From Chrysiogenia bacterium (lineage in GTDB: Bacteria; JAGRBM01): a stretch of 42,818 nt of DNA. Below are positions 10,161 to 40,443 of this stretch, one piece after another. The position numbers were made by a program, and so were the translations under genes. The notes beneath the pieces are model-generated. The model searched no databases and was not told the origin of the DNA. It saw only the letters and a program-made list of their open reading frames with translations. The number at the start of each line of letters is the position of its first letter. Position 1 is the stretch's first letter. The stretch lies in contig JAGRBM010000369.1 in assembly GCA_020434085.1 (NCBI GenBank), forward strand, positions 1 through 42,818, written 5' to 3'.

Positions 10161-10432
10161 GCGTGTCCGCGCAGAGGCGGCAGCGGCGGTCGATCCGGTT
10201 GCGCGGGTACGATTACACGCGGGCCGGCGCGTATTTCTTGACGATCTGCGCGCGCGGGCGTGAGTGCCTCTTTGGTGAGGTGGCGGAGGGCACGGTTCGG
10301 CTGAGCGATTCCGGACGCGCGGTGGAAGCCGCGTGGCACGGTCTGCCGGAGCATTACCCGCATGTGGACCTGGATGCGTTCGTTGTCATGCCCAACCATG
10401 TTCACGGGATCATTGTTTTGTCGGATCCCGAC

Positions 10433-10461
10433 GTAGGGGCGGGTTTAAAACCCGCCCCTAC
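10433..10461. repeat. REP-like palindrome copy 1 (GTAGGGGCGGGTTTAAAACCCGCCCCTAC)
   Basis: Perfect 14+1+14 inverted repeat inside the RAYT CDS, translated as VGAGLKPAPT. Confidence 0.85.
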
Positions 10462-10487
10462 CGAAAATGCCGTGGTGGAAATGGACC

Positions 10488-10512
10488 GGGCGGGTTTAAA
10501 ACCCGCCCCTAC
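10488..10512. repeat. REP-like palindrome copy 2 (GGGCGGGTTTAAAACCCGCCCCTAC)
   Basis: It lies 26 nt after copy 1 inside the RAYT CDS. The left arm is shorter. It is translated as RAGLKPAPT in the same frame. Confidence 0.8.
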
Positions 10513-10764
10513 GGGGACACATCACGGGTTGCCCGAAATCGTGCGGGCGTTCAAGACGTTCTCGGCCCGTCGGATCAACGCGCTGCGGGGCACGCCGGGC
10601 GTTCCGGTCTGGCAACGAAATTACTACGAACACATCGTTCGTGATGATGACGATCTGGCTCGGATTCGTGAATACATCGCAAACAATCCGATCGGGTGGG
10701 GAGGCGACCGGGAGAATCCGGCAAATGCCGGCCGGGTGGAGCGTTTTCCCGACGAGGATGCGCC

Positions 10765-15963: not shown

Positions 15964-16038
15964 ATGCGCTCACGTCTTGTTGCCGGATTTGCATCATTTG
16001 TAGTTGTTCTTCTCATCACTGCCGCCAACGCGACAGCG
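15964..16038 (+). other. Sec signal peptide of the giant protein
   Basis: MRSR n-region, hydrophobic core LVAGFASFVVVLLI, and A-T-A cleavage motif before QTPS. Confidence 0.75.
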
Positions 16039-19000: not shown

Positions 19001-22000
19001 CCGGCGGCGATACCAGCGTGCAGGTTTCCGCCCCGGTGATGCTGCTCGGTGAGAATTTGAGGATCCAGTATACGGTTACCGTCAATTCCATGGCGATGAC
19101 TCAGACGACCATCACGACTACCGGCGAGTTGGACGCCGATTCGCTTCCCACGACAGGTGATCCCGAGGAAGCGCAATACAACATCACCCGCAACCGCAAC
19201 TTCACGGTGAACTCGCCGAGCATTACTCACACTATTGCCGCGACGAACGAACCCAGCACCGGGTCGGTCAACGGAGCGACGCCCAACATCGACCTGACCA
19301 TTGGCGAGCAGGTGACCTTCGAGGTCAATGTCACCTTCGCGGAGGCAACCGCAAGCGGCGTTTCGGTGGTGGAGCAGCTCGAAAACGCAGATGGTATTCT
19401 CAAGGTGCTGAGCAGCCAGATCACGGCGATCGGCGCCGACCTGAGTTTCACCGCGCCGGGCATCATGGTCGGGCTTGCGGGCACGGCCAGTGACAACGAT
19501 CTCGATACATTCTTCGATCGCGTTACCTGGAATCTGGGGGATGTGACCAATTCCGGCGCCAGTGCTGGAATATCCGCCGCCGACATGATGACCTTCCAGA
19601 TTGTTGCGCAGGTCATCGACAATCCGGCGAATGCCAACGGCGACCTGCTCGATAACACTGCGACACTCAATTACGGTGCCGGCCTTGCCATGAGCGCCGA
19701 CGTGGACCTCGACGTCGTCGAACCGGACCTGACGCTGAACCTGTCGGTTCCGGGGGCCGCGGTGGATTCGAAGGACGTCATCACCGTAACAGCCGAGATC
19801 GACCAGAACTCGCCCACCTCCCAGGCTGACGCGTTCTCGCTCGTCTATACGGACCTGCTGGCCAGCGCCGGTGTTAGTCTTATTCCCACTACTGTAAGCG
19901 CCCCCGGTGGCGTGGTTGTTGCCGGTAACGGCGGTGGCGACACGACCGTGGTCGTGACTTACCCGACGCAGGCGCTCGGTGCGGGCACGCTGACTCTCAC
20001 CTACCAGGTGCAGCTCGAGGACCCCTCTGTCGCGGGGCTGACGGTCCCGGTCTCGGGTACGCTGGGCTGGGACAGCCAGGGCGCAGTGCCCGGCGTGGAA
20101 ACCCGCAGCCACAGCGACGGCGATGGCGCAAGCATCAACATCGATGAACCCACGATCGCGCACAGTATCTTCGCGACCGACGTCGCCCAGACCGGCAGTG
20201 CCCGGCATGTGGGCGGCGTGGAAGATCTGGCCATCGGCGAGTCGGTCACGCATTATATGACCGTGACCTTTGCCGAAGGAACCAATCAGGGCATTGTCGT
20301 GCGTGAAGAGCTCGACACCGTCGGCGAGCGACTGGAGGTGGTGAGCACCCAGGTCGTCTCCGTGGGCGCCAACCTCTCGGGTGCGAGCCTCCCGGTCGTC
20401 GCCTCGACGGCAACAAATGTGACCGCCACCAGTGCCGAGTGGATCCTCAATGACATCGTGAACGCGGGTGATAATGGGCCCGGTCCTGGCTACGCAAACA
20501 ACGTCGATGGGGACGATCAGATCGTCTTCGAAGTGGTGGCGGTACTGGTCGACGACGCGCCCGATACCAATGTCGACGGCGACTCGCCCGTCAACGTCGC
20601 GCGCCTGCAGCATGACAATGGGGCTGACAAGACGGCCAATGTGACTCTCGACGTGGCAGAGCCGGTGCTCGATATCCAGATGGCTTCCGACAGCCCAACC
20701 GGTGACGCGGGCAATCTGGTGCAGTTTACTGTGACCGTTAGCAATGACGGCGGTGCGCCCTTCAACTCCGACGCGCCGGCTTTCGACCTGGTGATCGAGG
20801 ATCTACTCGACCCGGACCTGAGCCTTAACGTGGGATCGGTTACGCAGGTGAGTGCCTTGGGCGGCTTTGCCGTCGTGAGCGGGAACACCGGTGGTGATAC
20901 GACCGTGCAGGTAACCCTGCCGGCGCTGCTGCTGGGTGAAACACTTGAATTCACTTACACCGCAAGTATCTCCACGGCGGTCGCACCGATGGATATGATC
21001 TCCACCACTGCGACCATCGACTTCGACAGCTATCCGGCGGACCCGCCCAGTGGCGCTGCTGATCAGCGCGCCTACAACGCAAGCGAGGGCAACACCCTGA
21101 CCATCCTGCCCATCGTGGTGGGTCACGTCATCACGGCGACCTCGGAAGTCGCTTCTACCTCGGCGCAATATAATCCTGCCGTGACCGACCTGCTCATCGG
21201 CGAGCAGGTGACCATGGAGATCGAGATCACCCTGCCCGAGGGCACCACCTCGAACGCTGCACTCAGTGAGCTCCTGGACAAGACCGTTGGTGTCTACGAG
21301 GTCGTCAGCAGCGAGATCACCCATATCGGCGGCCAGCTCACCATCGGTAGCGGACTCATGGTAGGTGACTCCGGCGTGGCCAGCGATTCGAACGCCGACC
21401 TCGCCAACGATCAAGTCACCTGGACGTTGGGCAATGTGCTCAACAATCCCGACGGTATGCAGACCGACGACGATCGCATCCGCGCCGAGATCGTCGCACG
21501 TCCCATCGACCGCGCGAGCAATGCAGCGGCGGATCTGGCCACACATACGGCTGAATTCACGTACGGAATTGCCGCCAGCGGCAGTGCCGACGTGCAGACT
21601 GAGATCGTGGAGCCCGTTCTTGATCTGACGCTGGCGGGAACTCCCGGCAGCGCCGACGCGGGCGATACAATCAGCTACACGGGCACGATCACGCACAACG
21701 GCGCTTCGACCGGACCGGCACAGGATGTCATCTACACGCACGTGCTCGCGGGGCCGGATCTGATCCTGACGCCCGGCACGATCGTTGCTCCGGGCGGCAC
21801 GGTCATCAGCGGTGACAACCCCGGCGACGATACCGTCACGGTGGTCTTCCCCTCACTGGCGCTTGCGGGCGGCCCGCTCACGGTGGACTATGACGCCGTT
21901 CTCCAGAACAGCGTGCAGCCGACGGACACTGCCGATACCGAGGCGACGGTCCACTGGAACAGCGTCTCGCCCTTCAGTGCCGGTATCACCCGGCGCTCGG

Positions 22001-25000
22001 TTCGCCCGGCGACCGAGAGTACGGACATCGACGACAACGCGGTGGGGAGCGTCTCCATCCTCAGCACCACCGATGGCAATACCGGAACCGGGCAGGGCAA
22101 TCCCGTCCTGGCCGACCTGAACATCGGTGAGAGTGTGACCTTCAGCGTGACGGTGACCTTCATCGAAGGAACCACCAAGAATTCGAGTTTCAGCTTCGAC
22201 CTGCCCAAGGGGACGGGCGCGCTCGAAGTGACTGCATCGAGCGTGCTGGGCGTGGGGGCCCAGCTCTCGGGCGCCGGGCTGCCTACCGTGGGACAGGCGG
22301 GCGCACCCTCCGACACCAACGGCGATGGGATCGATGATCGTGTGACCTGGACGCTGGGGAACGTCCTCAATACCGCCGACCAGGCCCTCAACGGCCTGGA
22401 CCAGATTACCTTCAGCATTACCGGCCGCGTGGCCGATCTGCCGGTGAACGCCGGCGGCGATACGCTCACCAACACCGCGACGCTTACCTACTCGGGCGGC
22501 TCCCAGTCGCAGATGCTGGATGTGGACATTGTCGAGCCGGTGCTGGTTATCACCAAGACCGGCAGCCTGCCGCCGGGGACTGCGCAGGCGGGCGGCGCGG
22601 CGGTCACCTACACCGTCACAGTGGAAAACCCCTCGGGCAACGGTTCGAGCGCGCCCGCCTATGCGCTGCGGATCGACGACCTGCTCGACCCCGATCTGGC
22701 TCTCGTCGTTGGGAGCGTCACCGAGACCAGCGCACTGGGAATGAGCGTTGCCGAAGGAAACACCGGCGGCGACGACTCGGTGACCGTGAATCTGGGTGAC
22801 CTGCAGCTCGGAGAAACACTGACCTTCACCTACCAGGCGGGTGTGAATGCCGGCGTTGCCCTGGGCACCATGATCACCAACACCGCGAGCCTGCAGGCCG
22901 ACAGCGCGCCCACCTACGTGGCAGGCGCGACGCGGCGCCAGAACCCCAGCGACATGCACACGATTGAAGTGGGCGCGGTCGATCTGACGGTCTTGCTCGA
23001 CGATGGTGCGGTTACGGCTAATCCCGGCGACGACGTCACTTACACGGCGACCTATGAGAACGTGGGCAACGTAGCCGCCACGGGCGTCACGCTGAGCCTC
23101 GTGGTGCCCACCGGCACGACCTTCAACCTTGGCATGAGTGCGGGCTGGACCTGTCTTGTGGCGGGTGCAGCCGGTGACACTTGCTCCAACATGATCGGCG
23201 GCGTCCCGGCGGCCTCGGGCGCGGCCATGTCGAGCTTCGTGCTCACTGTGGACGATCCGGTCCCGGCCGGGGTTACCGAGGTGATGACGAGCATCGCCAT
23301 TGCCGACGATGGTGCCAGCGGCGCCGACGATGTACCCGGCGACAATTCGGCAAGCGAGAACACCCCGGTGAGCGCGGTTCCCGATCTCACCATCGATGTC
23401 GATGATCCCGCTGGTCCGGTCAGCCCCGGCGGGCAGATTCTCTACAGCGTGAGCTACGACAACAACGGTCCGGGTGCCAGCCAAGGGGCGACCGGGGTGG
23501 AGATCACCCTCATCGTGCCGGCCGGGACGAGCTTCGACGATCCGGCCACGACTGCGGCCTGGGCTTGCGCGCCCGATGACAGCGCAGGCAGCACTTGTAC
23601 GCTGTCGGTGGGCGGATTGGCTGCCGGTGCCATGGGCAGCGCGGATTTCGTGCTCGCGGTGAACGCTTCGGTGGCCACGGCTCTGGAGCAGGTGGTCCTT
23701 GACGTGGCCATCGCCGACGATGGTACCAACGGCGCCGATCCCGACCTGCTCAACAACATGGACTCGGCCGCGGCGGTTTCCATCGATGCCGCCCCGGATC
23801 TTGCGATGAGCCTGATGGGGCCGGGCCTCACCGCCAACCCCGGTGACAACGTCCCCTACACGGCAACCTACGACAACCTGGGTGACCAGGGAGCAACCGG
23901 CGTGACGCTCTCGCTCACTGTCCCGGCGGGAACCTTCTTCAACTTCAGTGCCAGCGCCGCGGGCTGGGCCTGCACGCCCACCTCCAGTGCAGGCAGCGCC
24001 TGCACCTTCGCGGTATCGGGCACGGTCGATCCGAGCGACCCGGCGGGCAATGTCGCCTTTACCCTCACCGTGGTAAATCCCGTTCCCTCGGGCACGCCTG
24101 GGACACTGAGCACTACGGTCAGCGTCAGCGACGACGGTGCCAACGGTGCCGATTCCGATCCGCTGAACAATTCCGACACGGCCATGGGAACGACCATCAA
24201 TGCCGGTCCAGATCTTACCCTGAGCGTTGATGATTCGATCAGCGCGGCCGATCCCGGGGATACGGTGGTCTACACCCTGGTTGTCGAAAACGTGGGCACC
24301 CAGGATGCCATCGGCGTCGTGCTGACCAACCCGGTACCGGTCGGCGTGAGCTTTAACGCCGGCGCCAGCAGTGCGGGCTGGGCTTGTGCGCCCGCCTGCA
24401 CGCTCTCGGTGGGAGCAGTCGCTGCCGGTGGCAGCCGCACGCGCACCATCGCCTTCGACATCCCCGCGACGCTGACTGCAGGAGTGGCTTCTATCACCAA
24501 CAGTGCCAGCGTGGCCGACGACGGCAGCGGCGGAGCGGACCTCACGCCCGGTGACAACAGCGCGAGCCACGTGACCCCCGTGGATGCGGCCCCCGATCTC
24601 TCGCTGAGCCTCGACGACGGCGGAGCCAGTGTCGTGCCCGGCAACCCGATTACCTATACGACGACCTATGAGAACAACGGCACGCAGAACGCAGCCGGCG
24701 TGAGCATTGCCGTGACCGTTCCCACGAATACGAGTTTCAATTCCGGTGCCAGCACCGGCGCCTGGGTCTGCGTGCCTGATGCGAGTCCAGGTTCGATCTG
24801 CACGAGCGCTATCGGCGCCGTAGCGGCGGGCGCCTCGGTCATGATCGACGTGGTGCTGGACGTCGTTGTTAGCGTGCCCGGGGGTACTACCGAGATCACC
24901 ACCAACGCGCAGATCAGCGATGATGGTGCCAACGGTGCTGATCTCACCCCGGCTGACAACAGCGCTTCGGATACCACCACCGTGAGCGCGGCGCCCGACT

Positions 25001-28000
25001 TGAGCGTGAGCGTTGCCGACCCGGCTGGTCCCGTGGTGCCCGGCGACGATGTGGCCTGGGCGATCACCTACGACAACATTGGCACGCAGGATGCGGCCGG
25101 CGTCACGCTGGTCACCACCGTCCCCACGGGCAGCACTTTCAACGGCGCGCTCAGCCCGGCCGGCTGGGCCTGCACCGCCGGCGGCATCGCAGGCGCGACC
25201 TGCACCTTCACCGTCGCCGGAACCGTCGCGGCGGCAGATCCGGCCGTGATGGTGAACTTTGTGGTGAGCGTCGATGATCCGATTGCCGCGGGCGTGGATG
25301 GCCTCTCGCTGAGCGTGAGCGTCGCCGACGACGGTGCCAACGGTGCCGATCTGACGCCTGCCGACAACACCGACGCCTCGGCGCAGCCCGCGATCACCGC
25401 GGCACCGAACCTGAACGTCACGGTCGAAGGTCCGGGAGGCAATGTCTCCCCCGGAGACTCGGCTTCCTACACGATCATCTATGAGAACACCGGCAGCCAG
25501 GGCGCCACTGGCGTGTTCCTTACCTTTACAGTCCCGCCGGGTACCATGTTCCAGAGCGCGGGAAGCCCAGGTTGGACCTGCCTGCCCGATGGCAGTGCGG
25601 GCAGCACCTGCACCTACAACGTAGGCGGCGTTCCCGCGGGCAACCCGCCCGTGGGCGTGGGCATCACGGTCAAGCTGCTCGATCCAATGACGCCCGGGGT
25701 GGAGACCCTCGATCCCGGCGCGAGCGTCGGAGACGACGGCGGCAACGGTCCCGACGAGGACCCGGGTGATAACGGTGGTAGCGCTTCCGATACCGCGGGT
25801 GATTCGGGCGTGAGTGCCACGCCGGACCTCACCCTCGGCGCCGATGATGGCGGGGTGAGCGTGAACCCTGGCGACCAGATCAGCTACACGCTCAGCTATG
25901 CCAATGCGGGCGACCAGTCCGTGGCCGGCGCGCAGATTGCGCTCATCGTTCCCGCCGGAACGAGCTTCAACCTGGGCATGAGTGCGGGCTGGAGCTGCAT
26001 GGTGGCTGGTGCGGCGGGCGATACCTGCACGCTGAATATCGGGGCGCTCGCCGGAAACGGCGGCAGCGGCATGAGCACGCTGGTGCTCGACGTGGACTCG
26101 CCCATCGGTGGGGCGATAGAGGAGATCGCCTTCAGTGCGACCATCTCCGATACCGCTTCGATGGAAGCCGATGCCAATGCTCCAGATAACACCGCGACTG
26201 AGACGACGCCCATCGATGCCTCGCCCGATCTGTATGTGAGCGCGACGGGGCCAGGCGGGACGCTGGTGCTCGTCCCGGCAGGGCCGAACCCGAACCTCAG
26301 CTATACGATCAACTACGCCAACGACAATACGCTGGGCATGCAGGCGGCCAGCGGCGTAGAGATCGCCATCACTGTGCCGGCGGGCACCAGCTTTGACGAC
26401 CCGGCTACCACGGCGGCCTGGGCCTGCCTCCCCGACACGAGCGCGGGCAGCACCTGCACGCTCTCGGTGGGGGCACTGGCCATCGCGGGCAGCGGCAGCG
26501 CCGACTTCGTTCTCGCCGTGGACAACCCGCTGGCAGCGGGACTGACAGGCGTGGCGATCACCGCCGACATCTCCGACGACGGGATGAACGGCTCCGATGC
26601 CAACGCCGCCGACAATACGAGCACCTCGACCAGCACGACCCTCGATGGTGCGCCCGATCTCGTAATCGACGTCACCGGCCCGGGCCTCTCGGCCACGCCG
26701 GGCAACAATGTCGCTTACATGGTGGGCTATGAGAACGTGGGCACCCAGGACGCTGGGGGCGTGACGCTCACGATGACCGTCCCCACAGGGTCGAGCTTCA
26801 ACCCGGGCGCCAGCAGCGCGGGCTGGGTATGCGCGCCCGACAACAGCGCGGGCAGTACCTGCACCTTTGACCTTGGTAGCGTCGGAGCCGGTGATCCGGC
26901 CGGCAGCAAGAACTTCGTGGTCACCCTGCTCAACCCCGCACCCGCGGGCGCGGGTCCGAGCATCGGCATGAGCGGCATGATCGGTGACGACGGCGCCAAC
27001 GGAGCGGACCTTACCGGTGGCGACAACATGGACACCGACAGTGGGACGACGCTGAGCGCCGCGCCCGATCTCACTCTCGCAGCCAGCGACGGCGGCGTGA
27101 GCGTCAACCCGGGTGGCCAGGTGACCTACACCCTGGGCTACGCCAATGCTGGCGACCAGGACGCCACAGGCGTAACACTGACCGCCACCGTTCCTGCCAA
27201 CACGAGCTTCAACGCGGCGGCAAGCACGGCAGGCTGGATGTGCGCGCCCGATAGCGGCGCGGGCAGTATGTGCACGCTGAGCATCGGCAACCTCGGGGGC
27301 GGCGGCGCCGCCGGAAGTGCCCTATTTGTCCTGGACGCGGCAGCCATGATTGCTGCCGGCGCCGACGATGTGAGCTTCAGTGCCAGCATTGCTGACGACG
27401 GGGCCAACGGTGCCGATCCCACGCCCGGCGACAACGCTGCGATGGACACAACTCCCATCGACGCCGAACCCGATCTCTCGATCATGGTAAGCGACGGCGG
27501 CGGCACCCTCATGCCCGGCGATCTGCTGACCTATTCGATCGATTACGAAAACAACGGCACGCAGAGTGCCACCGGCGTTTATCTGGAAATCACAGTTCCC
27601 GTGAACACGAGCTTCAATGCCGGTGCGAGCCCGATGGGCTGGGTTTGCGCGCCCGATACCAGCGCGGGCAGCACCTGTACCTTTGCCGTGGGCGCAGTGG
27701 CCAGTGGCGCCATGGGGGCCACGAGTGCTGTCTTCAGCGTCGCCACCGAAATTCCTTCAGGCACAACGCAGATCACCGGCACGACCACCATCGGTGATGA
27801 TGGTACCAACGGCGGCGATGCCGACAACGTGGACAACTCGGTGACGCTCGACACGCCGCTTGACGCGGTGCCCGATCTTTCGGTGAGTCTCAATACGCCC
27901 GCCGGCCCGGTTATTCCCGCAGACACGGTGACTTGGGTGGTGAGCTATGAGAATGCCGGCGGTCAGGACGCTACCGGGGTTGTGCTGAGTGCCACCGTGC

Positions 28001-31000
28001 CCAGCGGTACGACCTTCAATGCCGGTGCGAGCAACCCGCTCTGGATGTGCGCGGGAGTGAGCTGCACCTTGAGCGTCGGCGCGCTCGCCGCGGGCGTGGC
28101 GCCCGTGGATGTGGACTTTGCCGTGGACGTCAACGATCCGGCGGCGGCGGGGCTGGGTTCGCTTTCCTTCAGCGTGAGCATCGCCGACGACGGCGCAAAC
28201 GGCAGTGATGCCAACGGGACCGACAACTCCGACACCTCAAATGCCCCGACGGTTACGGCGGCGCCTGACCTGGTGATCGATGTCGCAGGCCCCGGGGGCA
28301 GCGTCGGCGCGGGCGACCCGATCGGCTTCACGATTACCTACCAGAACACCGGCAGCCAGGCTGCGACGGGCGTCGAGCTCAGCTTTACGATTCCGCCGAG
28401 CACGCAGCTCAATGCGTTGGGTAGTCCCGGTTGGGTATGCGCTCCCGATGGCAGTGCAGGCAGTGCTTGCACCTATGCCATCGGCAGCGTGCCTTCGGGC
28501 GGCGCGGCGATGGGCGTGGGCCTGACCCTCATGGCGCTCGATCCAATCGATTCGGGCGTTGAGGGCGCGGACATCAGCGTGACCCTGGGGGATGACGGCG
28601 CCAACGGCGCTGACGAGAACCCGCTCGACAATACCGAGAGCGCTTCAGACGGTGGCGGCGATGTCGCGCTTGCGGCGGCGCCGGACCTCACGATCAGTGC
28701 CGATGACGGCGGCGCCACGCCCATGCCCGGTGACTCGGTAAGCTACGCATTGGATTATGGCAACGCAGGTGGCCAGTCGGCTGCCGGCGCGCAGATCTCA
28801 GTGACGGTGCCGACGGGATCAAGCTTCAACCTCGGCATGAGCGCGGGCTGGACCTGCCTGGTGGCAGGGGCAGCCGGCGACACATGCAGCTTGAACATCG
28901 GTGCCCTTGCCGGCGGCGCCATGGGCGGCACCACCGCAGTGCTGGATGTGGACTCACCCCTTGGCAGCGCCATTGAAGTTGTTGCCTTCAGCGCGAGCAT
29001 CGCCGACACCGCAGCGATGGAAGCCGACGAGAATCCGGCCGACAACACCGCAGCAGTGAACACCGCGATCGATGCAGCGCCCGATCTGCAGCTCAGTATT
29101 GTGGGGCCCGGTGGCAGCGTTGCCCTCGTGGCGGCGGGCCCGAATCCCACGATTGCCTACGCCTTTAACTACGCCAACGACGATACGCTCGGTAGCCAGG
29201 GCGCGACCGGAGTGACGCTGACGACCACGGTCCCGGCGGGTACGCTCTTCAGTTCCGGCGATACGAGCGCGACGTGGACCTGCCTGCCCGGCAACGGCGC
29301 GGGCAGCACCTGCACCCACAGCGTGGGGACCCTGGCCCTCAACGGCAGTGGTAGCGCGGACTTCGTTCTTCAGGTGGAAAACCCGGCGGCCGCCGTATTT
29401 ACGAGCGTCTCGATTTCCGGTGCGATTGGCGATGACGGCATGAACGGCGCCGACGTGGCGCCCGCCGACAACACGAGCACTTCGGGCGCGGTCAGCATTG
29501 ATGCTGCTCCCGATCTGCTGATCACCGTAACGGGCCCGAACCTGAGTGCCATGCCGGGACAGAATGTCGCCTACATGGTGGGTTACCAGAATATCGGTAC
29601 GCAGGACGCGACCGGTGTGGTGCTCACCATGACAATCCCGCAGGGTACGAGCTTCAATCCTTCCGCCAGCGCGGCGGGTTGGAGCTGCACGCCGAGCATT
29701 CTTGCGGGCAGCACCTGCACCTACAGCGTCGGCAATGTGGGCGCCGGCGATCCTGCCGGCAGCGTGAACTTTGTCGTCATTGTGGATAGCCCCGTGGCGG
29801 CGGGCGTGCCCGCGACCATCACGCTCGGTGGCTCCGTCGGCGACGACGGCGCCAACGGTGCCGATCTCGACGGTGGCAATGACATGACGAGCGATGCCGG
29901 AAGCAGCATCGACGCTCAGCCCGATCTGACCTTGAGCGTCTTTGACGGCGGCGCGAGCGTCGTGCCCGGCGGGCAGGTGAGCTACCTGCTCAGCTACGCC
30001 AATACCGGCGACAAGGGCTCCACCGGTGTCGCACTGACTGCCACGGTTCCTCCCGACGCGACCTTCAACCTGGGGGCGAGCACCGCGGGCTGGGTCTGCC
30101 TGCCGGATTCCAGCGCGGGCAGCACCTGCACCTTCAGTGTGGGCGGCGTTCCCGCCGGCGGCGCGGGCAGCGCCACCTTCGTGGTAGATATCGCCCTGAG
30201 CGTGGGCTCCGGTGTTACTCTTATCACTCAGAATGCGAGCATTGCCGATGACGGTATGAATGGCGCCGACGCAACGCCCGGTGACAACGCCGCGAGCGAT
30301 ACGACAAACCTCAACGCCGAGCCCAACCTGGCCCTCACCTTCAGTGACGGCGGGGCGGGGGCCATGCCCGGTGATACGGTGACCTACACGGCTACCGTGG
30401 AGAACCAGGGCAACCAGGAAGCCACCGGCATCATCGTCGCGAGTTCCGTGCCCGACAACACGGTATTCAATCCTGCTGCCAGCACCATGGGCTGGGTCTG
30501 TGTGCCCGACAACTCGGCCAGCAGCAACTGCACCATCAACGTGGGAGCGCTCGTCTCGGGCGCCATGACCAGCGTGAACTTCGCCGTGGATATTGACGAC
30601 CCAGTTCCCAGTGGTGTGACCCAGATCAGTGCTTCGGGTTCGGTGGCCGACGACGGTACCAACGGAGTAGATCCCGATCTGGGCAACAACGGCCAGAGCG
30701 ACACTACGCCGCTGGGTGCGTTCCCCGACCTGAGCGTTTCGGTAACAGACCCGGCAAGCCCCGTCGTGCCCGGCGACAGTGTCAGCTACGTGATTGCCTA
30801 CGACAACGTGGGCGATCAGGACGCGGTGAACGTGGTGATTGATGTGATCCTTGGTGCGGGCGCGGGTTTCAATGCCGGGGCGAGCAGTCCGGGCTGGAAC
30901 TGCACGGGACTTTCCTGCTCGCTCAGTGTGGGCGCGGTGGATGCCGCCGATCCGGCGGGGAGCACGACGCTCGTCGTCGACATTGACGATCCTATCGCAG

Positions 31001-34000
31001 CGGGTATCGACAACTTGAGTGCAAGCCTTTCCATTGCAGATGATGTGGCCAACGGCGCCGACGCCAATGCGGCCGACAATACCGATTCCTCGGTCTTGCC
31101 GGTGGTCGATGCCGCGCCCGACATGGCGATCACTGTGAGCGGTCCGGGCGGCAGCGCCCAGCCCGGTGACACGCGTGTCTACACGGTGACCTATCAGAAT
31201 CTGGGCAATCAGGATGCCACGGGTGTCACGCTCGAAATGACCGTTCCGGCGGGTACACAGTTCAATCCGACCGGCAATCCCGGCTGGATCTGCGCCCCCG
31301 ACGGCAGCGCGGGCAGCACCTGCACCTTCCTGGTCGGAGGCGTGGGCGCCGGCGATCCGGCAGTCGGCGTGGCCTTCACGGTGGACGTGCTCGGCGCAAT
31401 CGGCACGGGAATCGAGCTCATCGACCTGGGCGGCTCGGTCATGGACGATGGCGCCAACGGGCCCGATACCGGTGGTGGCAACAATGGTGACAACGACGAT
31501 GGCACCAGTATCGACGCGGCCTCCGATGTGGCGCTCAGCCTGAGCGATGGTGGCGCAATGCCCGGTCCCGGCGCGAGCGTGAGCTACATAGCCGGCTACG
31601 CGAACAACGGCGATCAGGATGCCGGCGACGTGCGCCTGTCTTTCATGGTTCCGGCCAATACGACCTTCAACGCCGCAATGAGCGATCCCTCCTGGAACTG
31701 CATACCCTCGGCGGCGGCAGGCAGTGCGTGCGAGTTGATTGTGGGTGCGCTGGCCTCGGGTGGTTCGAGCATGGCCGCCATTGTGCTCGATCTTGACGAT
31801 CCGATTGCAGCCGGTGTTGCCGATATCACGCTCACTGTGAGCGGCACTGATGCTGTCTCGCCCGATCCCGAGCCCACGCCCGCCGACAACAGCGCGAGCG
31901 TGATGACCCCGGTGCTTGCTGCGCCCGACCTCTATGTGGACGTGAGCGATCCGGGCGGCAATGTCACCCTTGCGCCCGCAATGACGGGCGGGGCGATCTC
32001 CTACACGATCTCCTACGGCAACAGTGCCGGCATGGGAACGCAGGCCGCGACAGGCGTGGCTCTTGCGGCGGTGGTCCCCGCCGGGACGAGTTTCTCCGAT
32101 GCCGACACGGTGGCAGCATGGGCTTGCGTGCCCGGTAGCAGTGCGGGAAGCACCTGCACGTTGAGCCTGGGCGCGCTCGCATTGGGGGCCTCCGGCAGCG
32201 CGGACTTCGTGCTACGGGTGGACAATCCGGTCGAAGCAGCAATCGAGAACGTCGTCCTGAGCGTGAGCATCGCCGACGACGGCGCGAATGGCGCGGACGT
32301 CGATGGTGGCAACAATACCGATACCTCGACGACGACCAGCATTACTGGCGCCCCGGACCTGCGCTTTGATGTGGTGGGGCCGGGCCTGACGGCGTCACCG
32401 GGTGAGGACATCATCTACTCACTTGAGTATGAGAATGTGGGTACCCAGGATGCCGCCGGCGTGTTCGTTTCGATGACCGTCCCGGCAGGAATGGTCTTCA
32501 ACCAGACGCTGAGCCCGGCGGGGTGGGCGTGTTCGCCCGATCTCAATGCCGGTGCCACGTGCATCTACAACGTTGGCGCCGTGGGCGCGGGCGATCCGGT
32601 CGCCGCGGTTCCCTTCATCATCACGGTTCCTGCGATCGTGGTTGCCGGAGTGGGTCCGGTCATTCCGGTAGGCGGTTTCATCGCCGATGACGGCAACAAC
32701 GGACCCGACCTCGCGCCTGCCGACAATGTCGATACGGACAGTGGCACCAGTATCGACGCCGCGCCCGATCTCTCGCTGATGCTCTCGGACGGCACAGCCT
32801 CTCCGGTGGCCGGCGGCAGTGTGATCTACACCATCAATCTTGAGAACCTCGGCGATCAGGATGCCACGGGGCTGGTCGTCACCGAGACCGTTCCGGCGAG
32901 CAGCACCTTCAGTGGCGGGGCGAGCACGCCCGGTTGGGTATGCATGGGTGGCGGCGGCGCCGGCGATACCTGCACCATTGCCATTGCGACGCTGAATGCG
33001 GGCTCGAGCGCGTCGCTGAGCTTCGCGGTGGTTCTCGACGCGACCTTGCCCGCGGGGCTCGATGAAATCGTAAATACTGCAAGCATTGTCGACGACGGCA
33101 TGGGCGGCAGTGATTCCGACGCCATGAACAACACCGATACGGTGAACACTGTGGTCGGCGCCATGCCCGACCTGGTTGCCGGTCTCGACGATGGCGGCGC
33201 CAGCGCCGCGCCCGGCGACACGGTGACCTACACGGTGAGCTGGCAGAACAACGGTACCCAGGGTGCAACCGGCGCGAGTGCCACCATCGCGATTCCGCTG
33301 AACACCACCTTCAACGCAGGGATGAGTGACCCCTCCTGGAACTGCTTCCCCAACGGGAACCCGTTGAGTGTGTGCACGCTGCCCATTGGAGCCGTCGCTT
33401 CGGGTGATTCGGGTATGGCGAGCTTCGCGCTTACCTGGAGCAACCCCATGCCGGCGGGCGTCGATGAGATCATTGTGAGCGCAAGCGTCTTCGACGACGC
33501 AGCCAACGGCGCGGATACCATCCCGGCAGACAACACCGCGCAGGATGCGACGCCGGTCATCGCGGCGCCGGACCTTGGTATCGACATTGACAACCCGGCC
33601 GGTCCGCTGGCTGCCGGTGGTACACTGCTCTTCGAGATCGCCACGGCCAACGGCGGCAATCAGGACGCGACCGGCGTGGTGCTGAGCGCCACGATTCCGG
33701 CGGGCCTTGAGTTCGATGCCGGAGCAAGCGACGCGCTCTGGTCGTGTGCGCCCAGCGCGACAACCGGGCCCGCATGCACGCTGAGCCTCGGAGCCTTTGA
33801 CGTGAGCGATCCCACCGACCAGCGCGACTTCGCGTTGCGCGCGCCCGATCCGCTGGTCTCGGGCCTCGATGATTTCACAGTGAGCGTGAGTGTGGCCGAC
33901 GACGGCGCCAATGGTGCCGACTCCAATGCTGCGGACAACACCGATACAAGTGCCAGCGTGAGCTTGGATGCTGCGCCCGACCTGCGGGTGACAGTCACGG

Positions 34001-37000
34001 GCCCCGGTGGCAGCGCCGAGCCCGGTGATACTCGCGTCTACTCCGTCACCTATGACAACGTCGGCACGCAGGACGCCACCGGCGTGGAACTCACCTTCAC
34101 AGTTCCACCGGGTACAAGTGTCCAGACCGGAGCGAGCCCCGGCTGGGTGTGCTTGCCCGATGCGAGTGCCGGCAGCACCTGCACCTACGCGGTGGGAACG
34201 GTTGGTGCGGGTGATCCCGCTGAGTCGCGCACCATTGCCCTCGACGTGCTCGATCCGGTGCCCGCCGGCGCGCACATAATCGACCTGACGCTGGATATCG
34301 GCGATGACGGTGCCAATGGCCCCGACGAGAACCCGGTCGACAATTCCTTCAACGAAACCGACACCGCCATCGATGCCGAGCCCGACCTGGCACTGTCCAT
34401 GAGCGGGGACGTCGCAACCGTGATGCCCGGCGGCGCAGTGGTCTACACCCTCGACTACGTCAACAACGGCGATCAGGACGCCACCGGCGTCGTGCTGACC
34501 GAGACCGTGCCCGCCAACACCGCCTTCAACGCCGGCGCGAGCACAGGGGGCTGGATGTGCCTGGTCGCCGGTGCGGCGGGCGATACGTGTATATTGAACA
34601 TCGGTGCTCTGGGTTCGGCTGCGATGGGAAGCGCCGATTTCGCCGTGGACGTGATCGCTGTGGCGCCCGCAGGGGCGGATAGCCTCTCAAATACGGCAAG
34701 TGCGGCCGACGACGGCGGCAACGGCGCCGAGCCGACGCCCGCCGACAACATGGCGATGGTGGAGACCACCCTCGACGCCGCGCCCGATCTCTCACTGAGT
34801 CTTGACGATGGCGCCATGAGTGCGGCGGCCGGTGGGGCGATCACCATTGACGTCATTGTGGACAACGCGGGTGACCAGGACGCGACCGGCGGCATGTTGA
34901 ACTTCACCGTGCCCACCGGAACGACGTTCAACGCTGGATTGAGCGCCATGGGCTGGAACTGCATGCCCGACGCCAACGCCGAGGCGAGTTGCACCCTTGC
35001 ACTGGGTGCTCTCAGCGTGGCCGGCACACCCGCCGCGTCTGTCACGATTGTGCTGGACGTGGATAACCCCGTCCCGGCCCTGCTGGAGTCGGTGACCACC
35101 ACGGTCAGCCTCGGCGACGATGGTGCAAACGGCGCCGACCAGATGCCTGCCGACAACGCGGCCGGTATCACGACCCCGGTGGACGCCGCGCCTGATTTCT
35201 CGCTCTCCAAGAGCGATGGATCGGCCGCACCGCTTCCGGGCGAGGTGGTCAGCTACATGCTCAATTATCAGAACACCGGCGATCAGGACGCGGCCAGCGT
35301 CACTCTCTCCGAAGTCGTTCCTGCCAATACGAGTTTTGAGACGGCCTCCAGCACGATGGGCTGGATCTGCGTGCCCGATACCAGTGCCGGCAGTGCCTGC
35401 ACGCTGAGCGTGGGCGCCTTGGCAGCCTCGGCCATGGACAGTGCAGTCTTTGCCGTGCGCGTGGACGGCTCGCTCGTGGGCGGCATGACCAGTCTTTCCA
35501 ACACCGCCGGCGTAACCGGTGATGGGGTGGGACCGATTGCCTCCAACCCGGTTACTACCGAAGTAAACTTTGCGCCCACGACCATGAACGATGCGGCTAC
35601 GGTGCAGCAGGAGCGCGCTCAGCAAATCGACGTGCTGGGCAACGACCTGGACGGCAATGTCCCGCCCGAGGCCCTGAATATTGTCGCAGTGGAGACCGGT
35701 GATGCCGCCGCAGGTGGCAGCGTGAGCATCGATCCGGGCGGATTGACGCTCACCTATACACCGAGCATCGGCTTCACCGGCGTCGATACCTTCGACTATA
35801 CGGTCGCAGATCCCCACGGGGCGCAGGCGACCGGCACCGTCACGATCACAGTGGTGGGTGTGCTTATCACAGAGTCCGACGGGGAAACCCGCGTCTTCGA
35901 AGGTGCTCTACCCGAGTATGCGGACAGCTATGAAGTGCGGCTGACCAACTGCCCGAGTTCGCCGGTCAATATCGCCCTGTCCCTGGATGCGGACATTTTT
36001 GTGAGCCCGGCGGTCCTTAATTTTGCCTCTCTGGGCTGCGTCGGTGCACCGATTCCGCAGACGGTCAACATTCAGGGCGCGGTCGATACCATGATCGAGG
36101 GCGATGAGATCGCCACGATTACTCATACGGTGAGCAGTCTGGATCCGAACTTCGACGGTGCTCCCGCGGCCGATGTGGACGTACATGTCGAGGACGCCGA
36201 TCTGGTGGCCGATCCCGGCGAGGACCGCACGGAACTGCCCGGCCTGTTGCGCCTGGACGGTTCGAACAGCCATGCGCTGGGCGACCTGGCCCTCAACTTC
36301 AACTGGCAGCCGGTGAGCGGTCCCATGGTTACGCTCACCGGATCGACTGGGCCGCGCCCGAGTTTTGTAGCGCTTGAGCCCGGCAATTATGTCTTCCGTC
36401 TGACGGTTTCCATCGTTACGGGAGAATATGATTCCGAGGAAGTGACCATCACTGTCACCGATGTGCCGCCCATCGCGCGAATCTCGCGCAACGTCATGGG
36501 AGTTGCCTCGCCGCCGATGGAATCGGCAGGGATGGATGTCGGCGAGACGTTGCCGCTCTCGGGTCTGCTCTCGTCGGACGATAATCTGACGCCGATCGAT
36601 TCCTTCACCTGGCAGCTCGGAGACGAAGTACCCTTCGGGGCGGACATCAACGAAGTGCTCGACGATCCGTCTTCACCGACGCCGGTGTTCACGCCGCTGG
36701 TGAGCAGCGCACCGGTGCCGGGCCTCTACGAGATCGAACTTGTTGTCAGCTCTGACGGCACCGATTCCGAGCCCAGGCTCCTTCGCGTCTACGTGCGCAA
36801 CTTCGACGAGATGGATCTCGCTGGATCCGTGGTGGAGCCCGCGGCTGATGCTGGTGTGGACCAGTACGCTGGCGTTGCGAGCGTTTACCAGCTCAACGGC
36901 ACCGCCAGCCTGGATCCCGACTCGCGCCAGCAGGGAGCGGAACTCGAATACTCGTGGCGCCAGGAACTGGGCACCCCGGTCACGCTTTCGAACCCCGCGG

Positions 37001-40000
37001 CCATTTCGCCGAGCTTCGTGATTCCCTCGCAGGGGGCGTTTACCTTCTGCCTGGAAGTGCGCGATGTGCTCGACGATGACCTGCCCAGTATTGAAGACTG
37101 CGTGACCATCACGGCCTTCGATCCGGGTGCGAACTACGCACCGGTGGCGGTGCCGGAATTCGTGGATGTCGATGACGACAATCTCGATGGGCGGGTCAAT
37201 GTGGGTGAAGTCTTCACCCTTACGGGGATTAACAGCACCGATCTTGATGGTGATGCCCTCACGGCGAACTGGAGGCTAGTCGATGCGCCGGGCTTCCACT
37301 CCTTCTCCCCAACGCTCAATGAGACCGAAATCTCCATGATGCCCTTCGTCGAGGGGACTTACCTATTCGAACTGACCGTCAACGACGGCATGGCGAGCAG
37401 CGTGCCCGTGGTCCTACCGGTCCATGTGCTGCCGGTCGGCACCGATGCCGCCCTGGCGGTTGCCAAGGCGGAGGTCGAGGAGAACACCAAGCTGACGCTC
37501 AGCGGTATCGTTCCCTTCATGCTCGATGGGGCGGAAAGCATCGGGAGTGATGGGCTCACGAACGCAAATCTCGGATACCTGTGGCAACAGACCGAGGGTC
37601 CCACCGCGATCATCGAAGATGCCAGCGCAATGCTTCCGATCGTGACGCCCATCGTCTCGGGCTACTACTGCTTCGAACTGACGGTGCGCACGCCTGGTGG
37701 CAGTCAGGCACACGACGAGGTGTGTCTGGAGGTCGAAATCACCGGTGGGGAGACTCGTAATCTGATCCCCACGGCAGTGCCCAGCGGGCCGCCCTATACG
37801 CGCAAGGATGTTGCAGTCACGATCTCGGGTACGCTGAGCAGCGATTCGGCTGCTGATGCCGACGGCGTGACGGGCGTGGTCAACGGCCTTGGCCTTCGCT
37901 GGTCCCAGTGTGGCGGCGTGCCGGTTGTGCTCGATGACAACCCCTTCACGCCCACCTTCACGCCGCCCGAGGACGGGGAGTATTGTTTTGAGCTGGTCGC
38001 CGACGACGGCGAAGCACTCGGCCTGCCCCAGCGCATAAGCGTGCAGGCGATCCTGATTGGTGCGACAGGCGGCGGGGGCACCGGTGACTGCACGCTCAAT
38101 CCCTCGGCCCCGGCCGGTGGGTGGACGTTACTGCCGCTGCTCAGTCTGCTTATGCTCTTCTTCTGGGATCGGCGCCGGCGCGGGGTTGCGGTGGATTCAA
38201 AACGGGGTAGGGGAACCGGGCTGCTGGGCCTTGCGCTGTTGTTCGCTCTTTCACTGGCTGGCAATGCTCACGCGCAGGCAGACCTGGGATTCCAGGCCGA
38301 GCACTTCGATCCGCTGCCCTCGCAGAAGCACAACATTCTCAACATTTCGCGCAGCGAGCTGATTGCCGAGGGAAATTACTCCCTGAGCATCGTCTCGAAC
38401 TATGCGAACGATCAGGTGCAGTTCGCGGCCTTCATCAACCCGTTCACCATCACCGAGCGGCCGATGCACCACAAGTGGCAGAGCGACCTGCTGGCTTCTT
38501 ACGGCGTGTTCGACTGGGCGGAGATCGGCATTGCAATCCCCGTGGTTTGGCGCCAGTCGGGCGACCCGCTCACCCTGATCGGGATGCCCAATACCGAGCT
38601 CGACGGGGCGGCCTTCGGCGATATTCGGATCGTTCCCAAGGTCAATCTGATCGCCCCTGATGATGGAGAGGGCTTCGGCATGGCATTTCTGATGCCGCTT
38701 TTCATCCCCATCGGGAAAAAGAACTTCCTCGCATCCGACCAGTTCTTTCGCGTCGAGCCGCGACTGGTTGCCGACTGGACCTTTGCCAACAAGGCCAGCA
38801 TTGCCATCAACCTGGGCGTGCAGATTCGTCCGCAACGCACCTTACTTAATTTCGTGAGCAACGATGTCTGGCGCTGGGGCATCGGCATGGAAACCCCCCT
38901 TGATTACGACTGGATCAAGAACGCAACCGGCTTCGAGCATCTCGAAGACTGGCGCGTCGGCGTCACGCTGTTCGGAAATCAGCAGATTCAGGACAACGTG
39001 GACTTCGGGGACTTCTTCTCGGGCGGCAATACCTCGGGTGATGATCCCACGGAGTTCATGGCCATGGTGCGATGGGATTTCGAGCCCGACTGGATGACCC
39101 AGCTCGCCTTCAGCAGCGTGCCCAATTACGGCGTAGGCGCTCCCGATTGGCGCATTACCTGGGGCATTACTTTCGAACCTGCCGTGGAAGAGGCGAGGGG
39201 CCCGGTGGATACCGACGGGGACGGGTATTTCGACCCCGACGATGAATGCCCGCTTGATCCCGAAGACTTCGACAATTTTCAGGATCTGGAAGGATGCCCC
39301 GATCCCGACAACGATCAGGACACGATTCTTGACGTGAATGACACCTGTCCGATGGATCCCGAGGACATGGACCAGTTCGAAGACCTCGATGGCTGTCCCG
39401 ATCCCGACAATGATCAGGACACGATTCTCGACGTGGTCGACCGCTGCCCCATGGAGCCCGAAGACATGGACGGCTATCAGGATGAGAACGGCTGTCCCGA
39501 TCCCGACAACGACGACGACGGAATTCTCGATATCGCCGATTCGTGCCCGATGCAGCCCGAGGATCTCGACGGCTTCGAGGACGAGGACGGCTGTCCCGAG
39601 CCCGGCCCCCTGGCGGCGGCCCCGAAGAAGCTGATTGCGCTGGACAAGATCCAGTTCGAGACCGGCAGCGCCACCCTTCGCAAGGAGAGCTACCCGATTC
39701 TCGACGACATCGTCTCGCAGCTGGTGGCCAACCCCTACATCACCAAGGTGCGCATCGAGGGGCATACCGACAGCCGCGGCGGCGACGCCTACAACCTCCA
39801 GCTCTCCGAGGACCGCGCCTTCGCGGTGCGCCAGTATCTGGTGAACTCAGGAATCGACAGCTCGCGCCTGCTCTCAAAGGGCTACGGCGAGACCCAGCCC
39901 ATTGCCGACAACGACAGCGCCAGCGGGCGCGAGCAGAACCGCCGCGTGGAGTTCGTCATCCTGGCCATCGACGGAAAACCGGTGGAGGGAGTGGAGCAAT

Positions 40001-40002
40001 AA
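15964..40002 (+). CDS. giant secreted repeat protein (8012 codons): DUF11-rich adhesin-like protein continuous with an OmpA-family module
   Basis: A single uninterrupted ORF with GGGGGA upstream of the ATG. The N-terminal signal peptide is [27 protein letters not shown]. The body is rich in D/T/A/G/S/V and made of beta-sandwich-type repeats. Module architecture is given in the features below. Confidence 0.85.
   Translation: [8012 protein letters not shown]
18346..22974 (+). repeat. about five tandem bimodular coding units (~0.94 kb, ~312 aa each)
   Basis: The second module of each unit starts at V/A-[EK]-P-x-L at 18781, 19717, 20656, 21607 and 22531, giving spacings of 936, 939, 951 and 924 nt. 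Each unit has two modules. Module A reads ...ETGS..(D)LTIGE.VTF.V.VTF.EGT... and module B reads ...GDAG..V.FT.T..H.G.S.AP.AYDLV..DLLD..L.L..GSV....GNTGGDT.V.V....LLGE.L...Y... Confidence 0.7.
22975..35565 (+). repeat. 31 tandem DUF11-type modules (~125-140 aa) organised as a 7-module supercassette repeated about 4.4 times
   Basis: Each module follows the pattern (A)PDL.[LIV]......PG..[LIV].Y...Y.N.G.Q.A.GV.L...VP.GT.F......GW.C.P....AGS.C......[LIV]..G........[LIV]......G.......[LIV].DDG.NGAD....DN........, the classic DUF11 'conserved repeat domain' layout. Supercassette starts are at 22975, 25819, 28678, 31519 and 34378. Confidence 0.85.
35566..38085 (+). other. C-terminal adhesin modules: cadherin-like, Calx-beta-like, and six PKD/K319L-like repeats
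   Basis: - Cadherin-like module: [23 protein letters not shown]...[22 protein letters not shown].
- Calx-beta-like module: [13 protein letters not shown]...[16 protein letters not shown].
- Six repeats with the pattern L.G..S.D......Y.W.Q..GP.V.L......P.F.P...G.Y.F.L.V.D.
Boundaries are judged by eye. Confidence 0.6.
38086..38184 (+). other. C-terminal-type sorting tag (MYXO-CTERM / GlyGly-CTERM-like) located internally
   Basis: It reads [33 protein letters not shown]. That is a Gly/Cys signature, a hydrophobic helix and an Arg cluster, but it is not followed by a stop codon. Confidence 0.6.
38191..40002 (+). CDS. OmpA-family outer-membrane protein module with its own signal peptide (in-frame inside the giant ORF; may be a separate or processed product)
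   Basis: An in-frame GTG at 38191 opens (M/V)[29 protein letters not shown], a signal peptide spanning 38191-38274. After it come about 300 aa with beta-barrel-like alternation, TSP3 repeats, and then the OmpA C-terminal domain ([10 protein letters not shown]...[30 protein letters not shown]...[27 protein letters not shown]). Confidence 0.55.
   Translation: [603 protein letters not shown]
39208..39603 (+). repeat. thrombospondin type 3-like calcium-binding repeats (tandem ~96-nt units)
   Basis: It opens with [15 protein letters not shown]. Repeated units follow of the form CP.(D/E)PED.D.(F/Y).D.(D/E)[13 protein letters not shown].CP. The three central units are clearly related at the DNA level. 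Confidence 0.8.
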
Positions 40003-40266
40003 ACGGAGGCCGATAGGAAGTTCTGGTCACAGGCTGGATCGCGGGTATTGTGGCACCACAGTAGCTGGTATGCGGCTTCAAGCTGAGCGCCAGGCGTGCC
40101 TTTCTGTGACCGCCCCGTGACCGCGCGAGTGTACGCCGGGTGGTTTTCGAGTCGTCGCTCAAAAAATAGAGAAAGTGGGCCGCAGGATCGGTGTTCTAAG
40201 TGATTGATTTCATTGGATGCGGTTTTACTGAGAATGGCGCAAATCTGGTTCTGCAACGGCGAATAG

Positions 40267-40313
40267 TCTTCCCAAGCTGAGGGTCGCGGGTTCGAACCCC
40301 GTCTCCCGCTCCA
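40267..40313 (+). pseudogene. 3-prime half of a tRNA-Gly(CCC) (anticodon loop to CCA); no matching 5-prime half
   Basis: The sequence CTTCCCAAGCTGAGGGTCGCGGGTTCGAACCCCGTCTCCCGCTCCA parses as follows:
- anticodon loop TTCCCAA (CCC);
- 3-prime anticodon stem GCTGA;
- variable loop GGGTC;
- T-arm GCGGG/TTCGAAC/CCCGT;
- acceptor strand CTCCCGC;
- discriminator T, then CCA.
The C70-G71-C72 plus U73 combination fits Gly identity. The upstream 40 nt cannot form an acceptor strand (GCGGGAG is absent), a D-arm or a 5-prime anticodon stem. Confidence 0.65.
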
Positions 40314-40443
40314 GACTTCGCGCCTCGGGCGCTTCGCCTGGCAAGCCAGCTTTTCAAACCCCTGAAAATTTTGCTCCCTTGCATCGCGCCCCGATCCGCT
40401 AGACTGGTTGGTGAACCAGCGCGAACTTAAAGGGGATTGCTGC

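Follow-up and report, generated by a model that had tools for sequence, protein, structure and literature searches.

Can a protein-sorting tag of a kind that belongs at the extreme C-terminus be used in the middle of a protein? The question is raised by a single gene in a 42,818-nucleotide stretch of DNA from Chrysiogenia bacterium (contig JAGRBM010000369.1 of assembly GCA_020434085.1), which as a whole is called the window here. This gene, one long open reading frame (ORF), encodes a giant adhesin-like passenger, a MYXO-CTERM-like sorting tag, a second signal peptide and an outer-membrane anchor similar to TraB of Myxococcus xanthus, in that order (Table 1). A first-pass annotation had observed that the tag runs directly into the new signal peptide with no stop codon between them, and had offered three explanations: two adjacent genes fused by loss of a stop, an assembly error of 1 nt, or a genuine polyprotein. 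We conclude below that two genes of the TraA/TraB type, one for a surface protein with a MYXO-CTERM tag and the other for its TraB-like partner in the outer membrane, have very probably been genuinely joined in frame here, and that the product is likely, if less surely, a polyprotein whose parts are separated in the inner membrane, the third of these explanations.

The translated junction reads ...IGAT-GGGGTGDC-TLNPSAPAGG-WTLLPLLSLLMLFFW-DRRRRG-VA-V(GTG 38191)DSKRGRGTG-LLGLALLFALSLAG-NAHA/QADLGFQAEHFDPLP..., where the slash marks the predicted cleavage site. Cys7376 of the tag is encoded at 38089-38091, the helix WTLLPLLSLLMLFFW at 38122-38166 and the RRRR cluster at 38170-38181. The ORF listing, the translation and a hydropathy scan all bear out the stop-free succession of tag and signal peptide: the terminal codon is the sole stop in the frame, the other two frames contain 307 and 188 stops over the same interval, and 606 residues follow RRRR without a stop, so that the tag lies away from the extreme C-terminus. 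Only three segments of the 8,012 residues exceed the hydropathy threshold and are free of acidic residues: aa 3-25 in the N-terminal signal peptide, aa 7386-7401 in the tag helix and aa 7417-7434 in the second signal peptide. Reading of the junction likewise agrees with the earlier description of an in-frame GTG at 38191 that opens a textbook signal peptide ending NAHA/QA, and the nearest stop, TAG at 38208-38210, is indeed in another frame.

The protein that follows the junction is complete and belongs to the OmpA family, as had been claimed. The 603 residues from GTG 38191 match the Pfam OmpA domain (E 1e-26), and their best NCBIfam match is NF033763, ‘outer membrane exchange protein TraB’ (262 bits). 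Homology to TraB spans the barrel as well as the thrombospondin type 3 (TSP3) and OmpA parts, and NF033763 is the only NCBIfam match of the barrel region alone (E 3e-23, 81 bits). Because the score of 262 bits compares with a curated cut-off of 700 bits for NF033763, the C-terminal module is best considered a TraB paralogue and not TraB itself; as a TraB paralogue it nevertheless ties the locus to the known TraA/TraB pair. An AlphaFold2 (AF2) model made from 45 sequences, with a predicted local distance difference test score (pLDDT) of 88.4, comprises a signal-peptide helix (residues 8-21), a 12-strand barrel, a TSP3 region and an OmpA domain, and thus the TraB architecture of signal peptide, beta-barrel, TSP3 and OmpA is present in the window module. 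The closest solved folds are those of FapF (12-strand) and a COG4313 channel for the barrel (TMt 0.65-0.71) and Capnocytophaga OmpA (5wtl) for the TSP3 and OmpA part. In stand-alone homologues the N-terminal signal peptide occupies the equivalent site and ends AxA before the motif [F][QA]xE[HQ]F[ED]PLP; the window barrel has this motif as F[QA]xE[HQ]F[ED]PLP and is about 30-37% identical to its nearest relatives.

Comparison with the M. xanthus pair is informative in understanding the whole gene. TraA of M. xanthus is a surface receptor with a MYXO-CTERM tag, and TraB has a barrel, TSP3 repeats and an OmpA domain behind its signal peptide (PMC12045341, PMC6372800). The genes traA and traB overlap by 4 nt (PMC3325183), they overlap in all orthologues examined (PMC6372800), and the two proteins occur in a 1:1 ratio, with TraA modelled atop the TraB barrel (PMC12045341). 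The window resembles this pair in having a surface protein with a signal peptide and a Cys-containing MYXO-CTERM-type tag immediately upstream of a signal peptide-barrel-TSP3-OmpA partner. The two parts are adjacent in both cases, but in M. xanthus as separate ORFs with a 4-nt overlap and in the window as one ORF. The surface proteins also differ: TraA has a PA14-like variable domain and TIGR04201 Cys repeats, while the window passenger is a 7,340-aa DUF11/CARDB/PKD adhesin.

The first-pass annotation had left the class of the tag open among MYXO-CTERM, GlyGly-CTERM and PEP-CTERM, and it is the first, Cys-containing type that stands. The signature includes a Cys (Cys7376) ten residues ahead of the helix, the helix is followed by D-RRRR, and the same protein has an N-terminal signal peptide as judged by eye and by hydropathy. 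The last passenger domain and the tag also align with positions 1473-1603 of the 1604 of NF038112, a myxosortase-dependent M36 peptidase (E 3e-5). The GlyGly-CTERM and PEP-CTERM readings were rejected in view of the Cys signature and the matches of relatives to MYXO-CTERM. The CPBP intramembrane protease MrtX cleaves MYXO-CTERM proteins after presumed lipidation of the Cys, the surface is reached through the type II secretion system, and the TraA tag has a long Cys-to-helix spacer comparable to that of the window tag (PMC11980579). With the substrates of the myxosortases (MrtX, MrtC and MrtP) the window protein shares the Cys signature, the transmembrane helix, the Arg cluster and the N-terminal signal peptide, and its relatives are found in Myxococcota and Bradymonadales, the two lineages that bear myxosortases. 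The difference is that MYXO-CTERM is by definition at the extreme C-terminus, whereas the window tag is an internal one with a score below the family cut-off.

The same arrangement recurs in many other proteins. The first homologue, P0001 (1,002 aa), has the layout ...GGGGCSAGGNAGGGMVLAIAVLVLLRRRR-LAIAALAVSASAHA-DTRDLDLSVFDP... and is 28% identical to the window protein from barrel to OmpA, and three further proteins from other data sets share the layout. A barrel-only profile searched against 1.84 billion representatives of 50%-identity clusters found 4,058 proteins at E<=1e-3, and the anatomy of the best 150 of these was read. In 87 of these best 150 (proteins of up to 4,010 aa) the barrel starts more than 100 residues in, a fused fraction that is inflated, since four of the five profile sequences were themselves fused proteins; in 55 it starts at residues 12-100, these being stand-alone proteins with their own signal peptide, and 8 are fragments. 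All 87 deep-start proteins have, within the approximately 85 residues that precede the barrel, a Cys-tag, a hydrophobic run, an R/K cluster, a second hydrophobic run and a small-x-small ending; 84 pass a strict rule for that order and the other three have it in weaker form. The internal tags of two of them, P0010 and P0057, pass the MYXO-CTERM family TIGR03901 at 22.1 and 29.6 bits (curated cut-off 20 bits). Their passengers are mutually unrelated (ASH/HYDIN Ig; Big_13/DUF11; Dicty_CTDC Cys repeats), and an N-terminal signal-peptide-like run is present in 63 of the 79 fused proteins that start with M. On a rough neighbor-joining tree of 133 barrels, Fitch parsimony gives at least 20 changes between the fused and unfused states, a count that is indicative only; this suggests repeated fusion or fission. 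An alignment of 12 sequences over junction and barrel found 3 matches when used as a query. The flanks of the fused genes were too short or noisy to reveal any conserved neighbors.

Some of these homologues have features of their own. The mostly fused ‘RNLDLSVFDP’ clade, to which P0001, P0010 and P0012 belong, has a weak or degenerate OmpA-like domain at the C-terminus; Pfam gives no OmpA match in P0010 and one at E 1e-8 in P0012. An NRRV-type motif occurs in only 14 of the 87 fused proteins, and TSP3 repeats are retained in 71. The last approximately 100 residues of the fused homologue P0009 (L001:10001-11839) are an Arg-rich nonsense tail that looks like a TSP3 region read out of frame, and the contig L001 has numerous short gene calls, suggesting an indel-prone assembly.

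Measured in 85 fused proteins, the junction has a characteristic shape. The first uncharged run has a median of 18 aa (22 aa in the window), the loop 5 aa with 4 R/K and 0 D/E (window, 15 aa with 7 R/K and 2 D/E) and the second run 17 aa (window, also 17 aa), the last value counting uncharged residues with the c-region included. AxA is the commonest end of the second run (40/85), and in the window that end is AHA/Q. Its length and its small-x-small or AxA ending indicate that the second hydrophobic run is like a signal peptide rather than a membrane anchor. With a median loop of only 5 aa, most relatives have a compacted junction, in which one and the same Arg cluster is the tag's cytoplasmic tail and supplies the n-region of the signal peptide.

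The window's own subfamily was sought in one genome per GTDB species, and 21 loci were found, all in metagenome-assembled genomes (MAGs) classified as Myxococcota, Bradymonadales or ‘Bdellovibrionota’ or left unclassified. The annotation had recommended asking whether a stop follows the Arg cluster at orthologous loci, and the answer is divided. There is none in L005, L006 and L019, where the genes are fused in frame, and there is one in L018, L021 and L022, where they are separate, lying 100-170 nt apart in L018 and L022 and overlapping by GTGA, as in traAB, in L021; the remaining loci are stand-alone with no tagged gene upstream. The upstream genes of the three separate pairs end in bona fide MYXO-CTERM tags (20.2-25.3 bits). 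In L021 (positions 3880-3900; Myxococcales MAG HK-STAS-MYXO-6) the upstream gene ends ...RRRRAR-TGA, with GTGA forming the 4-nt overlap with the TraB-like GTG, and this pair is one indel away from an in-frame fusion. With relatives that are fused, GTGA-overlapped, spaced and stand-alone, gene fusion, the first of the original three explanations, is best seen as the evolutionary origin of the polyprotein. A MAG of Myxococcota, XB_MAG542, contains both a stand-alone TraB-like gene with an unrelated gene upstream (L002) and the fused L006, whose product of 1,317 aa has its own N-terminal signal peptide; the TraB-like family is thus multi-copy within genomes.

A second metagenome scan, in other samples, provided two orthologues of L006 (L026 and L027). 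Over about 600 aligned codons the three differ at 151-167 synonymous versus 24-69 non-synonymous positions, and the 62-codon junction has 12-14 synonymous differences with the frame continuous. Because synonymous differences far outnumber non-synonymous ones and the frame is unbroken, the fused frame is under purifying selection in this group. L005, L006 and L019 have no in-frame start codons other than those within the h-region, and no basic residues follow these. A protein begun there would have a poor signal peptide, an argument for cleavage of a precursor as the source of the downstream protein. Thus, the join recurs in dozens of representatives that are less than 50% identical and in MAGs of Myxococcota, and is conserved in three orthologous assemblies, and of the explanations first offered the polyprotein is the one that we favor.

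In the mechanism that we propose, the N-terminal signal peptide would send the adhesin of about 7,340 aa into Sec export until the tag helix (about aa 7386-7401) acts as a stop-transfer segment, and the Arg/Lys-rich loop would be kept in the cytoplasm by the positive-inside rule. The second hydrophobic segment would then re-insert N-in/C-out as an internal signal peptide, and export would resume. A cut by signal peptidase I after AHA (aa 7437) would free the barrel-TSP3-OmpA protein, which would be inserted into the outer membrane by the beta-barrel assembly machinery (BAM) and bind peptidoglycan. A CPBP protease of the myxosortase type would cut the tag off at Cys7376, which is presumably lipidated, or beyond it; the adhesin would proceed to the cell surface and associate with the barrel as TraA does with TraB, and a hairpin peptide of about 60 aa would stay behind in the membrane to be degraded. 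The cell would benefit in that the adhesin, which is very costly, and its wall-tethered anchor would necessarily be synthesized 1:1 and have a co-localized biogenesis. We lean, if only slightly, towards the broader view that this ‘tag-then-signal-peptide’ polyprotein route is widely used in Myxococcota and Bradymonadales, with the internal tag as stop-transfer helix, the Arg cluster as n-region, and signal peptidase I and myxosortase together yielding a lipid-anchored surface adhesin and a TraB-like, peptidoglycan-tethered partner in the outer membrane in a strict 1:1 ratio.

Polyproteins that are cut at an internal signal peptide are known, the cytochrome b/c1 precursor FbcH of Bradyrhizobium japonicum and the flavivirus polyproteins being examples. 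As in the window protein, an internal signal peptide comes after a membrane segment in these, and signal peptidase divides them into two equimolar proteins; unlike it, they have no sortase-type tag and their products stay in or at the inner membrane, whereas the window arrangement implies a second, intramembrane protease and the departure of both products for the outer membrane or the cell surface. The curated family midcut-by-XrtH (NF033207) has a name that denotes a mid-protein sorting signal, and the P0057 junction matches it weakly (16 bits vs a cut-off of 45). It is of the exosortase/PEP-CTERM class and not of the myxosortase class, and we know of no signal peptide or outer-membrane partner that follows its signal. 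Among the papers searched, those that mention MYXO-CTERM, both myxosortase papers included, contain no description of an internal tag or of a TraB fusion. The tag-signal peptide-anchor layout is thus apparently widespread in sequence data and undescribed, in keeping with the original remark that such a coupling mechanism had not been seen described.

Several points weigh against the favored reading. In M. xanthus, TraA and TraB get to the outer membrane independently (PMC12045341), so coupling is not required there. The cleavages by signal peptidase and by myxosortase are both inferred from sequence features. The window tag only resembles MYXO-CTERM, since in three contexts it scores 7.2, 7.8 and 11.1 bits on TIGR03901, below the cut-off, for which its long Cys-to-helix spacer is the likely reason. 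The family search that had been suggested for sorting proteases, which covered the ORFs of the 42.8-kb contig, found no CPBP protease (the myxosortase class, with the NF040914 core) or other sortase-type protease, and the contig thus carries no myxosortase gene. No close relative of the window locus was found (best barrel identity ~34-37%): a word-indexed protein search with the junction gave only 6 matches, and a metagenome scan with window peptides gave none. An AF2 model of tag, loop, signal peptide and barrel has a junction pLDDT below 50-65 and no confident hairpin, a result that is uninformative either way, and the fused fraction of 87/150 is, as stated, too high. Finally, the window junction is uncompacted, with a full tag tail, its own basic n-region and an in-frame GTG preceded, at a distance of 5 nt, by a weak GGGG. 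The fusion has the look of a younger one, and translation might also start within it, at GTG 38191.

The last of these points bears on the alternative that survives best, namely that the fusion is real but recent and is neutral or harmful, so that the read-through product is mis-sorted or degraded and any anchor is made by initiation at GTG 38191. A loop of 15 aa against the family median of 5, together with the separate n-region and GTG just described, would be expected of such a gene, and fusions arise often, judging by the 20 or more switches between states in the rough tree; the window join has no orthologue in the searches made. Long linkers are, on the other hand, also present in the fused proteins P0018, P0029, P0031 and P0067, and fused genes with the hairpin logic intact are under purifying selection elsewhere. 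The window loop obeys the positive-inside rule, its signal peptide has the canonical end AHA/Q, and a scan of 37800-40500 for promoters and terminators found no promoter-like site in or near the junction (its one terminator-like match is within the barrel and falls below shuffle expectation). On this evidence we regard a recent, non-functional fusion as unlikely, and favor a fusion whose product is cleaved.

If the fusion were real and the second segment stayed uncleaved, the protein would remain in the inner membrane as a hairpin, with its two large parts in the periplasm, and would span the envelope as one chain. Two hydrophobic segments with a basic loop between them are also what a stable helical hairpin looks like, but the second segment has the length and the endings of a signal peptide across the family, and it matches the position of the cleavable N-terminal signal peptides of the stand-alone homologues. 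Moreover, a 12-strand barrel should be unable to enter the outer membrane as long as it is attached, just a few residues ahead of its first conserved motif, to a helix in the inner membrane. This arrangement is therefore very unlikely.

The second of the original explanations was an assembly or sequencing indel, with two genes in reality: an adhesin that ends at TAG 38208 and a TraB-like gene that starts at GTG 38191 in another frame. One inserted base within 38185-38207 would indeed end the upstream ORF at that TAG (...RRRRG...TG*), an indel could plausibly arise in the GGGG run at 38182-38185, and the window junction still resembles two complete gene ends; the protein collection has no exact 8,012-aa product, 603-aa product (from GTG 38191) or product from ATG 38152. 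Against this, a frameshift anywhere in the ORF meets a stop after a median of 14-25 codons, and the rest of the 24 kb is free of indels. With zero indels in a 24-kb frame, an error within these ~23 nt has an estimated probability of about 0.3% or less, and no error is needed to explain the join, because the fused state is common and conserved in relatives. We consider an indel here highly improbable.

A disguised type V autotransporter, in which the barrel exports the passenger and the ‘tag’ and ‘signal peptide’ are a mere hydrophobic linker, is scarcely credible: like type Va proteins the window protein is a single polypeptide with a large N-terminal passenger and a C-terminal 12-strand barrel, and FapF, the closest solved barrel, is a polypeptide transporter, but there is no homology to autotransporters (Pfam and NCBIfam searches found no such family, and TraB is the barrel's only family match), a cytoplasmic loop with an Arg cluster, at odds with a periplasmic linker, and a second signal peptide separate the two parts, TSP3 and OmpA domains follow the barrel, and relatives have passenger and barrel as separate genes with their own signal peptides and a true C-terminal MYXO-CTERM.

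Table 1. Parts of the giant tag-and-anchor gene, in window positions (a slash marks a predicted cleavage site)
Feature	Position	Strand	Basis
Single ORF, 8,012 codons: adhesin, internal sorting tag, internal signal peptide, TraB-like anchor	15964..40002	+	ORF listing
N-terminal Sec-type signal peptide MRSRLVAGFASFVVVLLITAANATA/Q	15964..16038	+	Hydropathy peak aa 3-25; cleavage site by eye
Giant adhesin-like passenger, ~7,340 aa	16039..38067	+	Domain matches
MYXO-CTERM-like tag: GGGGTGDC, 10-aa spacer, helix WTLLPLLSLLMLFFW, D-RRRR-G	38068..38184	+	Sequence, hydropathy
Predicted cytoplasmic loop DRRRRGVAVDSKRGR, 7 R/K and 2 D/E, doubling as n-region of the second signal peptide	38167..38211	+	Positive-inside rule
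Internal signal peptide V(GTG)DSKRGRGTG-LLGLALLFALSLAG-NAHA, predicted cleavage before Q7438	38191..38274	+	Sequence
TraB-like 12-strand outer-membrane beta-barrel	38275..39195	+	NF033763; AF2 model
Thrombospondin type 3 (calcium-binding) repeats, D-x-D-x-D-G...C-P, ~4 copies	39196..39600	+	Sequence; fold match 5wtl
OmpA-like peptidoglycan-binding domain	39655..39942	+	PF00691, E 1.3e-26

In a domain search the passenger contains about 31 DUF11 stretches, matches to CARDB, NPCBM_assoc and HYDIN-Ig-like families, and four K319L-like PKD domains; a PA14 match in it (E 0.004) covers only 21 residues and is below the family cut-off. Within the passenger, at 32596-32682 (aa 5545-5573), lies an uncharged, strongly hydrophobic Pro/Val/Ile-rich stretch, VAAVPFIITVPAIVVAGVGPVIPVGGFIA, whose hydropathy is the top peak of the giant ORF after the N-terminal signal peptide. 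Among the parts of the anchor, the Pfam TSP_3 match over the TSP3 repeats is weak.

The other genes of the window are of mixed kinds. A truncated ORF that runs off the contig start at 3-4100 (- strand), and is therefore absent from the ORF listing, encodes a bacterial alpha-2-macroglobulin (MG2, bMG3, bMG5, bMG6 and A2M bait region); the ORF opposite it at 165-3767 (+ strand) is probably spurious, as judged by G+C content at third codon positions (GC3). A 325-aa ORF with a Cys_rich_CPCC match (5355-6332, - strand; E 1e-14) separates the macroglobulin gene from a type I restriction-modification operon at 7438-15368 (+ strand). The operon comprises hsdM (7438-8943), hsdS (~8940-10160) and hsdR (10696-14631), and ends with a gene for a YgjP-like metallopeptidase (14631-15368, + strand); its HsdR (1,311 aa) has an N-terminal Fic/DOC domain at aa 120-215 (E 4e-23). 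The giant gene is followed immediately by a gene for a wax-ester synthase/DGAT acyltransferase (40444-41811, + strand; TIGR02946, 460 bits) and then by one for a small protein with a weak archaemetzincin-like match (41812-42573, - strand).

The LPXTG, PEP-CTERM, GlyGly-CTERM and MYXO-CTERM tags are all defined and annotated as terminal, so that internal tags, if as numerous as they seem, would alter the way in which tags are searched for, and they would show what a sorting enzyme must recognize. For bacteria, the window gene would be a rare example of an envelope polyprotein that is divided at an internal signal peptide, and few bacterial adhesins are as large as its passenger. Being short and portable, the junction could be tested with reporters in M. 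xanthus or in the existing system of Escherichia coli with MrtX (PMC11980579). For the family as a whole, the fused genes would extend TraAB to a modular display system in which a wall-tethered barrel is combined with a surface protein drawn from many passengers, and, if this is true, TraA/TraB would be the unfused, specialized tip of a large family of adhesin-anchor cassettes.

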